Translations under genes and position numbers: made by a program
From: Escherichia coli
Lineage (GTDB): Bacteria; Pseudomonadota; Gammaproteobacteria; Enterobacterales; Enterobacteriaceae
NCBI RefSeq assembly: GCF_036507355.1
Contig: NZ_AP027877.1
DNA: 64,000 bases
Reading direction: 5' to 3' (one strand)
The notes under the pieces: model-generated
What the model was told of the DNA's origin: nothing
Databases searched by the model: none
The model's input: the letters and a program-made list of their open reading frames with translations, nothing else
In this document: positions 2,181 to 29,568 of the stretch, one piece after another
How positions within the stretch are numbered: position 1 is the stretch's first letter
Layout of the letters: every line of letters starts with the position of its first letter

Positions 2181-3374
2181 ATGACGAAAGTGACACGCGC
2201 AGTAATTGTGGGAGGCGGGATCGGCGGTGCGGCAACTGCGCTGTCACTGGCCCGCCTGGGGATCAAAGTGGTGCTGCTGGAAAAGGCGCATGAGATCGGT
2301 GAGATTGGCGCGGGCATCCAGTTGGGGCCAAATGCGTTTTCGGCGCTGGACAGCCTCGGCGTCGGCGAAGTTGCCCGCCAGCGCGCGGTGTTTACCGATC
2401 ACATTACCATGATGGATGCGGTGAACGCCGAAGAAGTGGTGTGCATTGAAACCGGGCAGGCTTTTCGTGACCATTTCGGCGGCCCTTACGCGGTGATCCA
2501 CCGGGTTGATATTCACGCCTCGGTGTGGGAAGCGGTACTGACGCATCCGGACGTGGAATATCACACCTCCACCAACGTCGTGGATATTCGCGAGACGGAA
2601 GACGATGTCACCGTGTTTGACGATCGCGGCAATAGCTGGACCGGCGATATTCTGATTGGCTGTGACGGCGTGAAGTCAGTGGTGCGCCAGAGCTTATTGG
2701 GCGATGCGCCGCGTGTCACCGGACATGTTGTCTACCGTGCGGTTATCGATCGTGCCGATATGCCGGAAGATTTGCGCATTAACGCACCGGTACTGTGGGC
2801 GGGGCCGCATTGTCACTTGGTGCATTACCCTTTGCGCGGCGGCAAGCAGTATAACCTGGTGGTAACATTCCACAGCCGCCAGCAGGAAGAGTGGGGCGTG
2901 AAGGATGGTAGTAAAGAGGAAGTGCTCTCTTACTTTGAAGGGATTCACCCCCGTCCGCGCCAGATGTTGGATAAACCGACTTCATGGCGACGCTGGTCAA
3001 CCGCTGACCGTGAACCGGTGGCGAAGTGGGGAACGAAGCGCATAACGCTTGTGGGCGATTCGGCCCATCCGGTGGCGCAATATATGGCGCAGGGAGCCTG
3101 TATGGCGCTGGAAGATGCAGTAACGCTGGGTAAGGCGCTGGCGCAGTGTGAGGGTGATGCGGCGCAAGCCTTTGCGCTGTATGAGTCGGTACGAATTCCG
3201 CGCACCGCGCGCATCGTCTGGTCGACCCGTGAAATGGGGCGGGTTTACCACGCCGCAGGGGTAGAACGCCAGGTACGTAATCTGCTGTGGAAAGGGAAAT
3301 CGCAGGCAGAATTTTATCGCGGCATGGAGTGGTTGTACGGCTGGAAAGAAGATAACTGTTTGCAACCACGCTAA
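2181..3374 (+). CDS. 3-hydroxybenzoate 6-hydroxylase (FAD-dependent aromatic monooxygenase; mhbM-like)
   Basis: 397-aa ORF; N-terminal FAD dinucleotide-binding motif VIVGGGIGGAATALSLARLGIKVVLLEK; RBS aggaga upstream. Confidence 0.7.
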   Translation: MTKVTRAVIVGGGIGGAATALSLARLGIKVVLLEKAHEIGEIGAGIQLGPNAFSALDSLGVGEVARQRAVFTDHITMMDAVNAEEVVCIETGQAFRDHFGGPYAVIHRVDIHASVWEAVLTHPDVEYHTSTNVVDIRETEDDVTVFDDRGNSWTGDILIGCDGVKSVVRQSLLGDAPRVTGHVVYRAVIDRADMPEDLRINAPVLWAGPHCHLVHYPLRGGKQYNLVVTFHSRQQEEWGVKDGSKEEVLSYFEGIHPRPRQMLDKPTSWRRWSTADREPVAKWGTKRITLVGDSAHPVAQYMAQGACMALEDAVTLGKALAQCEGDAAQAFALYESVRIPRTARIVWSTREMGRVYHAAGVERQVRNLLWKGKSQAEFYRGMEWLYGWKEDNCLQPR

Positions 3375-3533
3375 GCACTTCTTCACCCAATCAGGCGCAC
3401 GGGCGGTCCCCTCGCCCCTTCGGGAGAGGGTTAGGGTGAGGGTAAAAATCTTGCCCGAATTAATCAGTAAGTCAGTTTGTCTGCAAACACAGGAGGCGCT
3501 AACATAGCGCCTCATTTTTTTGCGGGTGATGAT

Positions 3534-4484
3534 ATGCGTGTGTTACTGGCTCCGATGGAGGGAGTGCTTGACTCTCTGGTGCGTGAATTGCTGACCGAAG
3601 TTAACGACTACGATCTGTGCATCACCGAGTTCGTCCGCGTGGTGGATCAACTGCTGCCGGTGAAAGTCTTTCATCGCATTTGCCCTGAGCTACAAAACGC
3701 CAGCCGGACACCATCCGGTACGCTGGTGCGCGTGCAGTTGTTGGGTCAGTTCCCACAATGGCTGGCAGAGAACGCCGCCCGTGCGGTGGAATTAGGTTCC
3801 TGGGGCGTGGATCTCAATTGCGGCTGCCCGTCGAAAACGGTTAACGGTAGCGGTGGTGGGGCGACGTTACTCAAAGATCCTGAACTCATCTACCAGGGTG
3901 CAAAAGCGATGCGTGAAGCTGTACCGGCGCATTTGCCCGTCAGCGTGAAAGTGCGTCTGGGCTGGGACAGCGGTGAGAAGAAATTTGAAATCGCCGATGC
4001 GGTTCAACAGGCTGGTGCTACGGAGCTGGTGGTGCATGGACGGACAAAAGAGCAGGGTTACCGCGCGGAGCATATTGACTGGCAGGCGATTGGCGAGATT
4101 CGCCAGCGGCTGAATATTCCGGTGATTGCCAACGGCGAAATCTGGGACTGGCAGAGCGCGCAACAATGCATGGCGATCAGCGGCTGCGACTCAGTGATGA
4201 TTGGTCGCGGGGCGCTCAATATTCCCAACCTGAGCCGGGTAGTAAAATATAACGAACCGCGAATGCCGTGGCCGGAGGTGGTTGCTTTGCTGCAAAAATA
4301 TACCCGTCTGGAAAAGCAGGGCGATACCGGGTTATATCACGTAGCGCGGATTAAACAGTGGTTGAGTTATTTGCGTAAAGAATACGATGAAGCAACAGAA
4401 TTATTTCAGCATGTTCGTGTGTTGAATAATTCCCCTGATATTGCAAGGGCTATTCAGGCAATTGATATCGGTAAGCTGCGATAA
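3534..4484 (+). CDS. dusC: tRNA-dihydrouridine synthase C
   Basis: N-terminus [13 protein letters not shown] and length (about 316 aa) match E. coli DusC; ORF-track start at 3477 is an upstream in-frame extension. Confidence 0.9.
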
Positions 4485-4871
4485 TAGTGGAATCGCAGTT
4501 TATCAGAGACAATGAATCGCTTATTCAGCTTCATCATCTTGTTGCGCTCCTTTCATGAGCTAAGCCACATATTGCCACTGGCGCAAGGAGCGCGCAGGGG
4601 GAGGACAATCGCCTCCTCCCCCTGCACCCCCGGGCTCTGGCGAACAAAATCGCCGCTGCGCGGTACCTTCAGCTTATCCCCTTCGGCTACCGGGTCGGGC
4701 GCGAGGAAACGTCCTTGTAAGACGCGCCCTCAGCCCACATCCATGTGGGCTGCCCCGGCCTTCGGGGAACGCTTCAGCGATTTTGACGCCACCAACACCG
4801 GAGCTGTTTGCAAATCAAGTACACAAAATATCTAGTTCCTGACCTGACAACTTATATGTCATATCTGATTT

Positions 4872-4955
4872 TTAAAATATCATCTTAAATACGCCAGTCA
4901 CCACCAGTAGCCCAATCAGGAAAATAATCAATACAGCCCAGAGTATAATTTTCAT
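4872..4955 (-). CDS. yohP: 27-aa small inner-membrane protein YohP
   Basis: Hand translation of minus strand gives MKIILWAVLIIFLIGLLVVTGVFKMIF; single transmembrane helix; too short for the ORF track. Confidence 0.7.
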   Translation of the reverse strand: MKIILWAVLIIFLIGLLVVTGVFKMIF

Positions 4956-5178
4956 TGGCGTTCCTTTATTTGTGAGTGCTGAATAAGTATAGGAAAAAAC
5001 GAAGCCCTTTGCCGTTATCCATAAACGATTAAGATAAATCGGAAGATATCATTCACTTAGTGTATATTTTTCTGGATATGTCGTTTTATTGCTACTGATG
5101 TATTGCCACGCGAAACTAAAAAATATATCGCAACACACGGTAATCTCCGCGCACCTTTTCTTACCTGATTATTCCCCC

Positions 5179-6615
5179 ATGAATCGTGATTCCTTTTATC
5201 CAGCCATCGCCTGTTTTCCGCTGTTACTGATGCTGGCCGGGTGTGCGCCTATGCATGAAACCCGCCAGGCGTTAAGCCAGCAAACGCCCGCTGCACAAGT
5301 TGACACCGCATTACCCACGGCGCTGAAAAATGGTTGGCCAGACAGCCAATGGTGGCTGGAGTATCACGATAATCAACTCACTTCCTTAATTAACAATGCA
5401 CTACAGAACGCACCGGATATGCAGGTGGCTGAACAGCGCATTCAGTTAGCTGAAGCCCAGGCGAAGGCAGTTGCTACTCAGGATGGTCCGCAGATCGACT
5501 TTTCTGCGGATATGGAGCGGCAAAAAATGTCGGCAGAAGGGCTAATGGGGCCGTTTGCTCTGAACGATCCGGCCGCAGGTACGACCGGTCCGTGGTACAC
5601 CAACGGAACTTTTGGCTTAACGGCGGGCTGGCATCTCGATATCTGGGGAAAGAATCGGGCGGAGGTTACTGCCCGCCTGGGTACGGTTAAAGCACGGGCG
5701 GCGGAACGCGAGCAAACCCGCCAATTGCTGGCTGGCAGCGTAGCCCGCCTGTACTGGGAGTGGCAAACCCAGGCGGCGTTAAACACGGTCTTGCAGCAAA
5801 TCGAAAAAGAGCAGAACACCATTATCGCGACCGATCGCCAGCTATATCAGAACGGGATTACTTCTTCAGTTGAAGGTGTGGAAACCGATATTAATGCCAG
5901 CAAAACCCGGCAGCAGCTCAACGATGTCGCGGGGAAAATGAAAATTATTGAGGCACGGTTAAGCGCACTTACAAATCACCAGACAAAGTCATTGAAGCTT
6001 AAACCGGTCGCGTTGCCGAAAGTGGCAAGCCAGCTTCCTGATGAACTGGGGTACTCCTTACTGGCCCGGCGGGCAGATTTGCAGGCGGCGCACTGGTACG
6101 TTGAGTCATCGCTAAGCACCATTGATGCGGCAAAAGCGGCATTTTATCCTGACATCAACCTGATGGCCTTCCTGCAACAGGATGCGTTGCACTTAAGCGA
6201 TCTGTTCCGTCATTCCGCGCAGCAAATGGGCGTTACGGCAGGCCTGACGCTACCCATTTTCGATAGTGGTCGTCTTAACGCCAATCTCGATATCGCAAAA
6301 GCTGAAAGCAACTTGTCTATCGCCAGCTACAACAAAGCGGTGGTTGAAGCGGTGAATGACGTGGCGCGGACAGCCAGTCAGGTTCAGACACTTGCGGAGA
6401 AAAACCAGCATCAGGCGCAAATTGAGCGCGATGCCTTGCGTGTGGTAGGTCTTGCGCAGGCGCGCTTTAACGCGGGCATCATTGCTGGTTCCCGCGTCAG
6501 CGAAGCCAGAATCCCCGCGTTGCGTGAGCGGGCCAATGGCCTGTTATTGCAAGGGCAGTGGCTGGATGCCTCCATTCAACTCACTGGTGCGTTGGGCGGG
6601 GGTTACAAACGCTGA
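5179..6615 (+). CDS. mdtQ: outer-membrane efflux lipoprotein (OMF family), apparently intact
   Basis: Lipobox LLLMLAGC after start MNRDSF; 478-aa OMF/TolC-like sequence with no internal stop. Confidence 0.8.
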   Translation: MNRDSFYPAIACFPLLLMLAGCAPMHETRQALSQQTPAAQVDTALPTALKNGWPDSQWWLEYHDNQLTSLINNALQNAPDMQVAEQRIQLAEAQAKAVATQDGPQIDFSADMERQKMSAEGLMGPFALNDPAAGTTGPWYTNGTFGLTAGWHLDIWGKNRAEVTARLGTVKARAAEREQTRQLLAGSVARLYWEWQTQAALNTVLQQIEKEQNTIIATDRQLYQNGITSSVEGVETDINASKTRQQLNDVAGKMKIIEARLSALTNHQTKSLKLKPVALPKVASQLPDELGYSLLARRADLQAAHWYVESSLSTIDAAKAAFYPDINLMAFLQQDALHLSDLFRHSAQQMGVTAGLTLPIFDSGRLNANLDIAKAESNLSIASYNKAVVEAVNDVARTASQVQTLAEKNQHQAQIERDALRVVGLAQARFNAGIIAGSRVSEARIPALRERANGLLLQGQWLDASIQLTGALGGGYKR

Positions 6616-8883: not shown

Positions 8884-9056
8884 AAAGTTCTTTGACGTTG
8901 CATTGCTGGCGTAAATGTCAGCAATGCAGCATTTCCTCACGATTCTCCTTTGACGATCGCACTTTTTGCTCGTTATGATGGCGTCGCTAGCCTCAGTAAA
9001 TCCTTACTCCGGCGGTGCGCAACCCGTGCGCGTGAACCACTATCTGAATGCTCATC

Positions 9057-17492: not shown

Positions 17493-18224
17493 ATGAAGAT
17501 GTTGCGCGATCCGCTGTTCTGGCTCATTGCTCTTTTTGTGGCGCTGATTTTCTGGCTACCTTACAGCCAGCCGCTTTTTGCTGCCTTGTTCCCACAACTG
17601 CCACGACCCGTTTATCAGCAAGAAAGTTTTGCCGCTCTGGCACTGGCTCATTTCTGGCTGGTGGGAATTTCGAGTTTGTTTGCGGTGATCATTGGTACTG
17701 GTGCCGGAATTGCAGTCACTCGCCCGTGGGGCGCGGAATTTCGCCCACTGGTGGAAACTATTGCTGCCGTTGGACAGACTTTTCCGCCCGTCGCGGTGCT
17801 GGCGATCGCCGTTCCGGTGATCGGGTTTGGTCTGCAACCAGCGATTATCGCCTTGATCCTTTACGGTGTGCTGCCCGTCCTGCAGGCGACACTTGCCGGG
17901 CTGGGAGCGATTGATGCCAGCGTGACAGAAGTTGCGAAAGGTATGGGAATGAGTCGAGGTCAGCGACTGCGTAAGGTCGAGCTACCGCTGGCGGCTCCGG
18001 TGATTCTGGCGGGCGTGCGAACTTCGGTGATTATCAACATTGGTACGGCGACGATCGCCTCAACGGTAGGGGCCAGCACGCTGGGTACGCCCATCATCAT
18101 CGGGCTTAGCGGATTTAATACCGCGTATGTGATCCAGGGGGCGTTACTGGTGGCACTGGCGGCGATCATCGCAGACCGCCTGTTTGAAAGGCTGGTGCAG
18201 GCGCTTAGCCAGCACGCAAAATAA
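17493..18224 (+). CDS. yehW: ABC transporter permease
   Basis: 243-aa polytopic membrane protein, 4 nt after yehX. Confidence 0.85.
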
Positions 18225-18312
18225 AGGTATAACCTGCGAGCATGACGCCACCAATTCCGCCTAACGCCATAAACAGGAACAGGGCGATGACCCCAATTTT
18301 AGCTATGCGCAT
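18205..18312 (-). CDS. yohO: 35-aa small membrane protein YohO
   Basis: Hand translation [35 protein letters not shown]; its 3' end overlaps the yehW stop on the opposite strand. Confidence 0.6.
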
Positions 18313-18371
18313 AATGCACTCCTTATGTTAACGAAAGGATTGTACAGTAAAGCGCATTTGTTAACGAATCA

Positions 18372-19103
18372 TTAAATGTCGAGTGGGAAAATATCATGGC
18401 CTTGTTCTTGCCAACTGGTGAGTTGCTGCTGTTGGGCGGAGGTTCGATTTTCACCGCACCACACCAGCAATGTACGGCCTTCGAATAGTTCAGGGCGTAG
18501 TTGATTGAGCGAATGGGCGAGGACATCAATGCGCCATCCTTGTTGACTGGCAATCCAGCCCTCCAGCCACAGACGGATGGTATCCTGAATATTCCAGCCA
18601 ACCACCAGCGCATCTTTACCCTGTTTTTTACGTGCCGAAGCCAGACAAATGGCGATGTAGTTGATCAGTACGCCGTCGAGGATCGCCAGCAGCGCCTGGA
18701 GAGTCGGTTGTTGGCACTGAAGCCGTCGGCGCAGAGGAATAAACAGATGTGTGGTGAGCGTCTGGGCGGGGTAATCCTGACCGCGCTCTTTGATCCACGT
18801 TCGCAGGCTATGCAGATTGCCGCTTTGCAGGTAGGTCAGTAATGTTTCTTGCTGATCGCGCCAGCCGTTCTGCACATCAACATTTTCATTACTGAGCAGC
18901 ATTTTAACTTTGCTGACCTGCACGCCGTTGTCGATCCAGCGTTTGATCTCGCGGATACGGTCAATATCGGCATCGTTGAACAGCCGATGACCGCCGTCTG
19001 TCCGTTGCGATTTCAGCAATCCGTAACGCCTCTGCCACGCGCGTAACGTGACAGGGTTAATATCACAAAGCAACGCCACTTCACCAATTGTGTAAAGCGC
19101 CAT
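18372..19103 (-). CDS. mlrA: MerR-family transcriptional regulator (curli/csgD activator)
   Basis: N-terminal MerR HTH MALYTIGEVALLCDINPVTLRAWQRRYGL, 243 aa. Confidence 0.85.
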   Translation of the reverse strand: MALYTIGEVALLCDINPVTLRAWQRRYGLLKSQRTDGGHRLFNDADIDRIREIKRWIDNGVQVSKVKMLLSNENVDVQNGWRDQQETLLTYLQSGNLHSLRTWIKERGQDYPAQTLTTHLFIPLRRRLQCQQPTLQALLAILDGVLINYIAICLASARKKQGKDALVVGWNIQDTIRLWLEGWIASQQGWRIDVLAHSLNQLRPELFEGRTLLVWCGENRTSAQQQQLTSWQEQGHDIFPLDI

Positions 19104-29482: not shown

Positions 29483-29568
29483 AATAAAAAAACCTGCTGG
29501 TGAGGCAGGTTCTTTTATTTACTATTTTCAGGCCTAACACCACAGCCTGTGCAACATCGTGTTCCAAC
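29483..29568 (-). ncRNA. predicted antisense sRNA antitoxin (OrzO-like), roughly 85 nt
   Basis: Minus-strand -10 TATAAT (plus 29575-29580) placing the start near 29568; minus-strand intrinsic terminator (hairpin 29491-29511 plus U-run 29481-29490); its 5' end is complementary to the toxin leader at 29716-29734 (19 nt, 1 mismatch). Confidence 0.5.

Follow-up and report, generated by a model that had tools for sequence, protein, structure and literature searches.

The GC-rich spacer between dusC and yohP in the stretch of Escherichia coli DNA analyzed here (64,000 nucleotides of contig NZ_AP027877.1, hereafter the window) contains an element that is already known: judged by its sequence, the segment at approximately 4524–4830 is TRIP1c, that is RRS-dusC, a repeat that has been named and studied experimentally. 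The window very probably carries a natural inverted allele of this element, one that puts the G4 motif on the template of the leading strand and in which gap formation would be weak or absent. Finding TRIP1c again adds nothing by itself, because the element has already been published as a conditionally essential, Ter-flanking trigger of gaps. What is added – an analysis of orientation, a strand-specific pattern of covariation and a link to the Rfam motif TwoAYGGAY – is offered as a set of leads, not conclusions.

TRIP1, a set of conserved GC-rich Escherichia repeats of ~270–300 bp, was described with copies a, b and c (Rudd 1999), and Li et al. 2024 (PMC10888264) followed it through 6,725 genomes: 99% of copies reside at five fixed loci, one of which, TRIP1c, is defined as lying between dusC (yohI) and yohP/mdtQ (yohG), and is occupied in 2,952 forward and 2,789 reverse orientations. 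Copies serve as substrates of large chromosomal rearrangements, with 156 events documented in the same survey. RRS-lysO and likewise RRS-dusC represent what Pham et al. 2023, 2024 called the "replication risk sequence" (PMC10287960, PMC11194060). In K-12 two near-identical 222-bp cores are located ~650 kb either side of dif, flanking Ter, and at both RRS the strand with the G4 motif (GGGGGTGCAGGGGGCGGCGG) is the lagging-strand template (PMC11194060). On this strand Pol I, II and IV stall in vitro, and Pol III synthesis is lowered in vivo; each RRS is adjoined by ssDNA gaps that reach 2 kb and are occupied by RecA and SSB; clean deletion of both RRS proved impossible, at least one being conditionally essential; and RRS deletion or inversion alters supercoiling genome-wide (PMC11194060). 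When an RRS was inverted by engineering in K-12 the RecA or SSB peak was absent in vivo (PMC11194060), and in vitro the reverse orientation gave gaps at lower frequency (2026 preprint 10.64898/2026.06.16.732529). An inverted RRS pair has been stated to be always present (PMC10287960).

The interval 4485–4871 is the whole of the intergenic region between dusC and yohP, which are convergent, and the order dusC-yohP-mdtQ is that of the K-12 locus. Within it the element proper is narrower (Table 1). Alignment to K-12 TRIP1a gave 90.8% identity over 305 bp (91–92% in other alignments), and alignment to K-12 TRIP1c gave 88% identity over 272–279 bp, on the opposite strand, at window positions 4524–4800. 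The window copy is thus closer to TRIP1a, the aqpZ-lysO copy, than to K-12 TRIP1c, and it occupies the published TRIP1c locus. K-12 MG1655 itself carries the aqpZ–lysO copy (91–92% identical), the dusC-yohP copy and a partial one after putP.

Table 1. Features of the dusC–yohP region. Positions are those of the window; a strand is given where the feature has one.
Feature	Position	Strand	Basis or remark
dusC	3477-4484	+	name from 100%-identical stretch of E. coli E308
Allele-specific left flank	4471-4523		includes last dusC codons
107-aa ORF, judged spurious	4512-4835	+	ORF list
Whole TRIP1c repeat	~4524-4830	- (sense = G4-motif strand)	identity to K-12 TRIP1a and TRIP1c
Hairpin E, GCGCUCCUU pairing with AAGGAGCGC	4544-4593	-	9-nt pair 4544-4552 / 4585-4593
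Counterpart of 222-bp RRS core	~4576-4796	-	alignments where K-12 TRIP1a and TRIP1c coincide
Hairpin D, perfect 12-bp GC-rich stem	4594-4625		arms 4594-4605 / 4614-4625; sequesters 3 of 4 G-tracts
G4 motif variant GGGGGTGCAGGGGGAGGAGG	4631-4612	-	regex match
First Y domain, outer stem round hairpins A, B and C; 162-nt TwoAYGGAY-like core	4635-4796	-	R1 full-length match
16-nt outer inverted repeat	4645-4660 / 4770-4785		inverted-repeat search
Hairpin C, GGGCGCG...ACAAGGACG...CGCGCCC, GGA loop	4697-4729	-	K-12 ACAGGGAUG; Kluyvera ACAUGGAUG
Hairpin B, CAGCCCAC-AUGGAU-GUGGGCUG	4731-4752	-	AYGGAY-type loop; arms 4731-4740 / 4743-4752
Hairpin A, CCCCG-AAGGC-CGGGG on sense strand	4753-4767	-	fold, covariation
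Allele-specific right flank	4831-4869		K-12-shared sequence resumes at 4870, just before yohP stop codon
yohP	4872-4955	-	name from 100%-identical stretch of E. coli E308

An earlier note, made from the letters of the window, had described this interval as a GC-rich, structured, non-coding segment, and the spacer, its base composition (61.8% GC at 4524–4811 against 50.5% for the window) and its fold are all confirmed. The observation holds, but the segment, which the note found unexplained by the flanking genes, is the known TRIP1c (RRS-dusC), a point that the note overlooked. Of the natures proposed there, a decayed repeat is half right: TRIP1 is a repeat, but far from being decayed it is well conserved, and megablast places it in 5,425 of 5,426 complete E. 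coli genomes, at ~17,500–18,800 places with a median of three per genome (range 1 to 10, a few places being plasmid-borne). The 241-nt core used as query gave the same distribution over genomes as the whole interval. A recombination hotspot, also proposed, fits the documented use of the copies as rearrangement substrates (Li et al. 2024, PMC10888264). Since both homologous copies and covariation (below) were found, the objection that the segment might lack them does not hold.

The case for an inverted allele rests on alignment. The 279-bp match (88%) between the window and K-12 TRIP1c runs plus/minus, and only the edges belonging to dusC and yohP run plus/plus; in global alignment to the K-12 cassette the reverse complement scores 412, against 16 for the same orientation. 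The variable cassette measures ~400 bp (~4471–4869), and it is this whole intergenic cassette that holds the element reversed with respect to K-12. Its flanks have diverged far more than the core, which differs by ~12% between alleles. The final residues of DusC read ...DIGKLR* in the window (4466–4484) and ...DIEKL* in K-12; the last codons thus differ between alleles, which places the boundary of the polymorphic cassette inside the dusC coding sequence. Breakpoints of an in-situ inversion were not seen: the flanks align weakly as reverse complements, and no inverted repeat was seen at the boundaries.

Strand assignment followed from GC skew, which on the plus strand of the window is positive in every 8-kb block (+0.035 overall). 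Because of this skew, and because dusC is co-oriented, the plus strand is taken as the leading strand, and the G4 motif consequently falls on the leading-strand template. The K-12 arrangement, with the G4 strand as lagging-strand template, is therefore not that of the window, and such an arrangement does not define the repeat family. At the aqpZ-lysO copy of E308 the G4 motif is on the minus strand of the record, and the skew of –0.023 there points to a lagging-strand template, as in K-12. Since the lysO copy of E308 keeps the K-12 orientation, the two RRS of this strain are direct repeats and not an inverted pair.

The flipped allele is common. A window-type spacer (at least 80% covered) was found in 1,999 of the 5,426 complete genomes (~37%) and the K-12 type in 3,309, frequencies that agree with the forward and reverse counts of Li et al. 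(PMC10888264). The flipped dusC allele is also present in E. whittamii and Escherichia sp. E1V33, and in E. coli E69 the a and c copies are both flipped. The window is thus an example of a common natural allele with G4 on the leading-strand template; together with the direct-repeat RRS this allele qualifies published claims of a conserved orientation and of an ever-present inverted pair, and natural strains that carry it could be used as testbeds for the RRS model. Two alternative cassettes (~350–390 bp) likewise occur in the aqpZ-lysO spacer, where they hold the element in opposite orientations; the one of Ec387 type is without the aqpZ terminator hairpin of K-12.

The mechanism demonstrated by others in K-12 suggests how the two orientations might differ. 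On unwinding by the replisome, the G4-motif strand with its stable hairpins folds and blocks DNA polymerases; where the lagging strand is copied from it, replication leaves behind an ssDNA gap, at most 2 kb long, to which SSB and RecA bind, and the K-12 pair of RRS influences global supercoiling. In the window allele the reversed cassette makes the G4 strand the leading-strand template. RRS-dusC may then trigger gaps weakly or not at all in the window lineage, with RRS-lysO – in the K-12 orientation in E308 – presumably supplying the gap-forming activity. That the gap mechanism may be largely inactive in the window allele is suggested by the engineered inverted RRS of K-12, which lacked the RecA/SSB peak. 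Several findings count against this explanation: the ~37% of complete genomes that are flipped, strain E69 with both copies flipped, and the direct repeats of E308 where an inverted pair was said always to be present.

The interval contains a single predicted G4-forming motif, on one strand, at which G4Hunter reaches its extreme for the interval (–1.92 at 4607, scored on the plus strand). The G-tracts of the K-12 motif are retained in the window variant (Table 1); relative to K-12 TRIP1c there are two C-to-A changes in the G4 loops, both matched in the opposite arm of the hairpin. This hairpin, D, has a predicted DNA fold of –17.6 kcal/mol on either strand, and its arms show compensatory combinations across copies (GGAGGA/UCCUCC, GGCGGC/GCCGCC, GGGUGG/CCACCC). 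Because its stem buries three of the four G-tracts and its arms co-vary, selection is demonstrably on hairpin D and not specifically on a G-quadruplex. A counterpart of hairpin D, with the G-rich arm 5', follows the core in all gammaproteobacterial relatives, but G4Hunter scores are only 0.6–1.3 in distant relatives that keep the fold, a further point against the G4-based account. In the E. albertii copy the G-runs at the G4 site are expanded (GGGGGGGCAGGGGGGGGGGCGG; alignment columns 265–285).

Structure is not confined to hairpin D. The perfect palindromes reported from the letters, with arms of 12 nt and 10 nt, are those of hairpins D and B (Table 1), and hairpin B is invariant in all 25 aligned copies. 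RNA folding gave –151.3 kcal/mol for the minus strand (z = –6.55) and –133 for the plus strand (z = –6.2), with none of 100 shuffles as good; DNA folds of the sub-domains gave z = –3.3 to –4.7. Hairpin E was considered as a Shine-Dalgarno (SD)/anti-SD pair and rejected: it is only a stem, TRIP1d-like copies carry CGUUCAC/GUGAACG in its place, and the AUG is not conserved.

Twenty-five copies from Escherichia species, Kluyvera, Pseudocitrobacter and other Enterobacteriaceae, gathered by the 18-mer of hairpin B, were aligned, which gave a consensus of 70 pairs, 14 of them compensatory; three long-range compensatory pairs separate the window-type core from the K-12-type core. When relatives were added – in a combined alignment that was fitted to the model and whose non-Escherichia loci had been chosen by a shared 18-mer – 35 of 46 pairs were compensatory, and 95.5% of cells were paired as against 35–41% with the partners slid, and all of 500 shuffles fell short of these values. 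GGA loops are retained across this alignment. The compensatory changes show that the structure is under selection.

Wobble pairs bear on the question of which strand is selected. Single-sided transitions in mostly Watson-Crick pairs, taken over the union of the structures predicted on either strand, leave the G4 strand with G·U wobbles at 16 positions and the other strand with three (binomial P = 0.004); wobbles were counted by position and not by sequence because the copies are related. This shows that selection acts on the single-stranded fold of the G4 strand, whether as RNA or as ssDNA. As G·T wobbles are tolerated in ssDNA too, the asymmetry is no guide to whether RNA or DNA is at work.

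A covariance-model search of the interval against Rfam, which the earlier note had suggested for a structured RNA, yielded no family at its gathering score. The best match was always TwoAYGGAY (RF01731), always on the G4 strand and always below the gathering score of 43: 25.9 bits for the window (E = 0.15; 4647–4786, minus strand), 30.6 bits for K-12 TRIP1a, and 29.6 bits. Over the whole window three families pass, all unrelated to TRIP1c: OrzO-P antitoxin RNA (29486–29561, minus strand, 99.9 bits), Peptidase-S11 RNA (8972–9052, plus strand, 72.8 bits) and the TPP riboswitch (53857–53953, plus strand, 71.2 bits).

The core resembles RF01731 (Weinberg et al. 2010) in having an outer stem round two adjacent hairpins with AYGGAY-like or GGA loops and a UGAG linker. 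The enclosing stem of the core is present and co-varies. The AUGGAU loop of hairpin B fits AYGGAY; that of hairpin C is AAGGAC in the window and AGGGAU in K-12, while Kluyvera and HGUT-00110 have AUGGAU. An 18-nt hairpin, GCCCACAUGGAUGUGGGC, is identical in Lachnospiraceae members that score 72–79 bits. The window copy is unlike the family in its score, in its second loop, and in having extra helices and the G-rich hairpins D and E; TRIP1/RRS, moreover, has demonstrated activity at the level of DNA.

A covariance model (R1) was built from 20 TRIP1 cores and matches the window core over its full length with 199 bits; E-values from this model are rough. A divergent paralogue is arranged head-to-head with TRIP1 in Pseudocitrobacter, Kluyvera and related genomes, the 5' ends ~50 nt apart, and these paralogues match both models: RF01731 with 49.2 bits, which exceeds its gathering score (43), and R1 over full length with 45–64 bits. 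Through such intermediates TRIP1 is linked to accepted members of RF01731. The two-hairpin core of Lachnospiraceae TwoAYGGAY RNAs (72–79 bits with RF01731) scores 31–40 bits with R1, a match that is biased because the loci were chosen by a shared 18-mer, and multi-copy elements in Edaphovirga and Shewanella score 31–37 bits. The paralogue beside TRIP1 in Pseudocitrobacter and Kluyvera has a G-rich hairpin of its own; a head-to-head pair places one G-rich strand on the lagging-strand template whichever direction the fork takes.

Relatives were gathered with the exact 18-mer of hairpin B in the genomes of ~100,000 species. Approximately 50 of the 82 matches were discarded, being either coding (e.g. 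a W-P-T-W-M-W-A motif) or isolated in unrelated genomes. The 18-mer is absent from representative genomes of Salmonella, Klebsiella, Enterobacter and Citrobacter, and by this strict test TRIP1 looks patchy beyond Escherichia, Kluyvera and Pseudocitrobacter. Several copies of related elements are carried by Edaphovirga (at least 11 loci), by Shewanella and by a Thiotrichaceae MAG. In Edaphovirga cremea the identical hairpin (GCCCACAUGGAUGUGGGC) occurs at 11 or more loci inside a repeated element, and at the three loci searched with R1 a second match lies ~130–180 nt away on the opposite strand.

On the strength of these comparisons of sequence and predicted fold, the 162-nt core is related to TwoAYGGAY, though it scores below the threshold. 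Literature that mentions TwoAYGGAY does not treat RRS or TRIP1, and the RRS papers are not among it. More tentatively – we regard it as possible but doubtful – RRS/TRIP1 may be the enterobacterial branch of a wider TwoAYGGAY-type class, in which GGA hairpins are read by a protein and the G4-dependent gaps are a partial function or a by-product. Such a class would be multi-copy in several gammaproteobacteria, often as head-to-head pairs, and the selected fold of the G-rich strand would act as RNA or as ssDNA. If true, the reading of GGA hairpins would explain why the flipped orientation is naturally tolerated in ~37% of genomes, and some Rfam "TwoAYGGAY RNAs" would be elements of replication or topology. 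The fold, the strand-specific wobbles and the kinship with TwoAYGGAY together make a structural hypothesis, GGA-loop hairpins as opposed to G4, whose two sides are separable by mutagenesis.

A published prediction makes TwoAYGGAY a CsrA-binding (sequestering) sRNA (PMC4333381), and the core might accordingly function as a folded RNA, a TwoAYGGAY-type transcript of the G4 strand with two GGA-loop hairpins to which CsrA or another protein binds. We consider this unlikely as the function of the element. The transcript would be the 3' UTR of yohP in the window and of dusC in K-12: with convergent genes the sense strand is downstream of a gene in either orientation, and no terminator separates the element from the stop codon of yohP. 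The weak RF01731 matches (25.9, 30.6 and 29.6 bits) are always on the G4 strand, the strand that the wobble asymmetry also favors, and the neighboring paralogues exceed the gathering score (49.2 bits against 43; 45–64 bits with R1). Two GGA loops, as in a comparison with RNAs of the CsrB/CsrC type, are present in the window copy. The SELEX consensus of CsrA is RUACARGGAUGU, and the loops resemble it, hairpin C of K-12 being UUACAGGGAUGU.

Against such an RNA, the wobbles would be tolerated as G·T in ssDNA, and the sense strand of K-12 TRIP1a runs antisense to the genes on both sides. No promoter or intrinsic terminator of the element's own was found in the sequence, and the literature searched on dusC-yohP reports no transcripts. 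In the supplementary gene tables of E. coli CsrA CLIP-seq (Potts et al. 2017), dusC and ybjE appear as unbound. Because neither promoter, terminator, transcript report nor CsrA support was found, the published experiments at the level of DNA are the only direct functional evidence.

A second alternative is that TRIP1 is a selfish or formerly mobile structured repeat, similar to MITEs or REPs, which has been maintained by gene conversion and by insertion at intergenic hot spots; its effects on replication would be side-effects, and its main consequence would be to offer a substrate for rearrangement. The numbers of copies (1 to 10 per genome, a few places on plasmids), the occurrence of both orientations at two different loci, the multi-copy relatives in Edaphovirga (at least 11 loci), Shewanella and the Thiotrichaceae MAG, and the 156 documented rearrangement events (PMC10888264) are all in keeping with this. 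However, a mobile repeat sits badly with 99% of copies at five fixed loci (PMC10888264), and terminal inverted repeats, target-site duplications and an associated transposase were not seen. The strong conservation of structure and loops, and the published phenotype of conditional essentiality (PMC11194060), likewise make a purely selfish repeat improbable.

The two orientations at one locus might also be taken for an active, phase-variable DNA switch, a reading that is very improbable: the alleles are ~12% apart in the core with short flanks diverged beyond easy alignment, and both occur in more than one species of Escherichia, on which grounds an active switch is rejected; flanking inverted repeats and an invertase are lacking as well.

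The chance of a real gene is negligible, even though both candidate frames exist – the single 107-aa plus-strand ORF that the earlier note had listed as low-complexity, and a small minus-strand ORF with AAAGGAG 7 nt upstream of AUGAUG – since neither has a Pfam match, the ATG of the longer lies inside an allele-specific flank, the shorter is 27 aa in the window and 3 aa in K-12 TRIP1c, its AUG is missing in several copies and its "SD" changes from GGAGCGC to GUGAACG with a compensating change in the partner, copies range from 281 to 290 nt with indels that are not multiples of three, and substitutions are paired stem changes. A minus-strand leader of the SD/anti-SD kind with a small ORF, similar to a riboswitch or a type I toxin, was discarded for the same unconserved AUG and unequal ORF lengths.

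The inverted allele of RRS-dusC can be set beside several known systems. Its nearest counterpart is K-12 TRIP1c, with which it shares locus, repeat family, G-tract motif, hairpins and 88% identity; it differs in that the cassette is inverted relative to dusC and yohP, in the flanks and last dusC codons, and in having G4 on the leading-strand template. TRIP1a (RRS-lysO), at ~91–92% identity, is alike in sequence, but occupies another locus and, in the window-type strain E308, is a direct repeat of the dusC copy. The REP and BIME sequences of E. coli are likewise GC-rich repeats that lie between genes, form hairpins and affect the topology of the chromosome, and BIMEs bind gyrase. By description, however, these have units of ~35 bp in hundreds of copies, whereas TRIP1 measures ~280 bp, has 1–10 copies and is unrelated in sequence. 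The G4 of pilE in Neisseria gonorrhoeae, a G-quadruplex-forming sequence tied to gap formation, was cited by the RRS authors as the sole bacterial precedent (PMC11194060); unlike RRS it serves antigenic variation, with neither a surrounding conserved fold nor a Ter-flanking placement.

The genes around the element differ between strains as well. Directly upstream of dusC the window has an ORF of 397 aa for an FAD-dependent monooxygenase (2181–3374, plus strand; Pfam FAD_binding_3, E = 2e-24), and since yohJ and yohK adjoin dusC at this point in E308 and K-12, the window carries an accessory insertion there. On the other side mdtQ is an intact ORF (5089–6615, plus strand), whereas the annotation of K-12 gives it as a frameshifted pseudogene.
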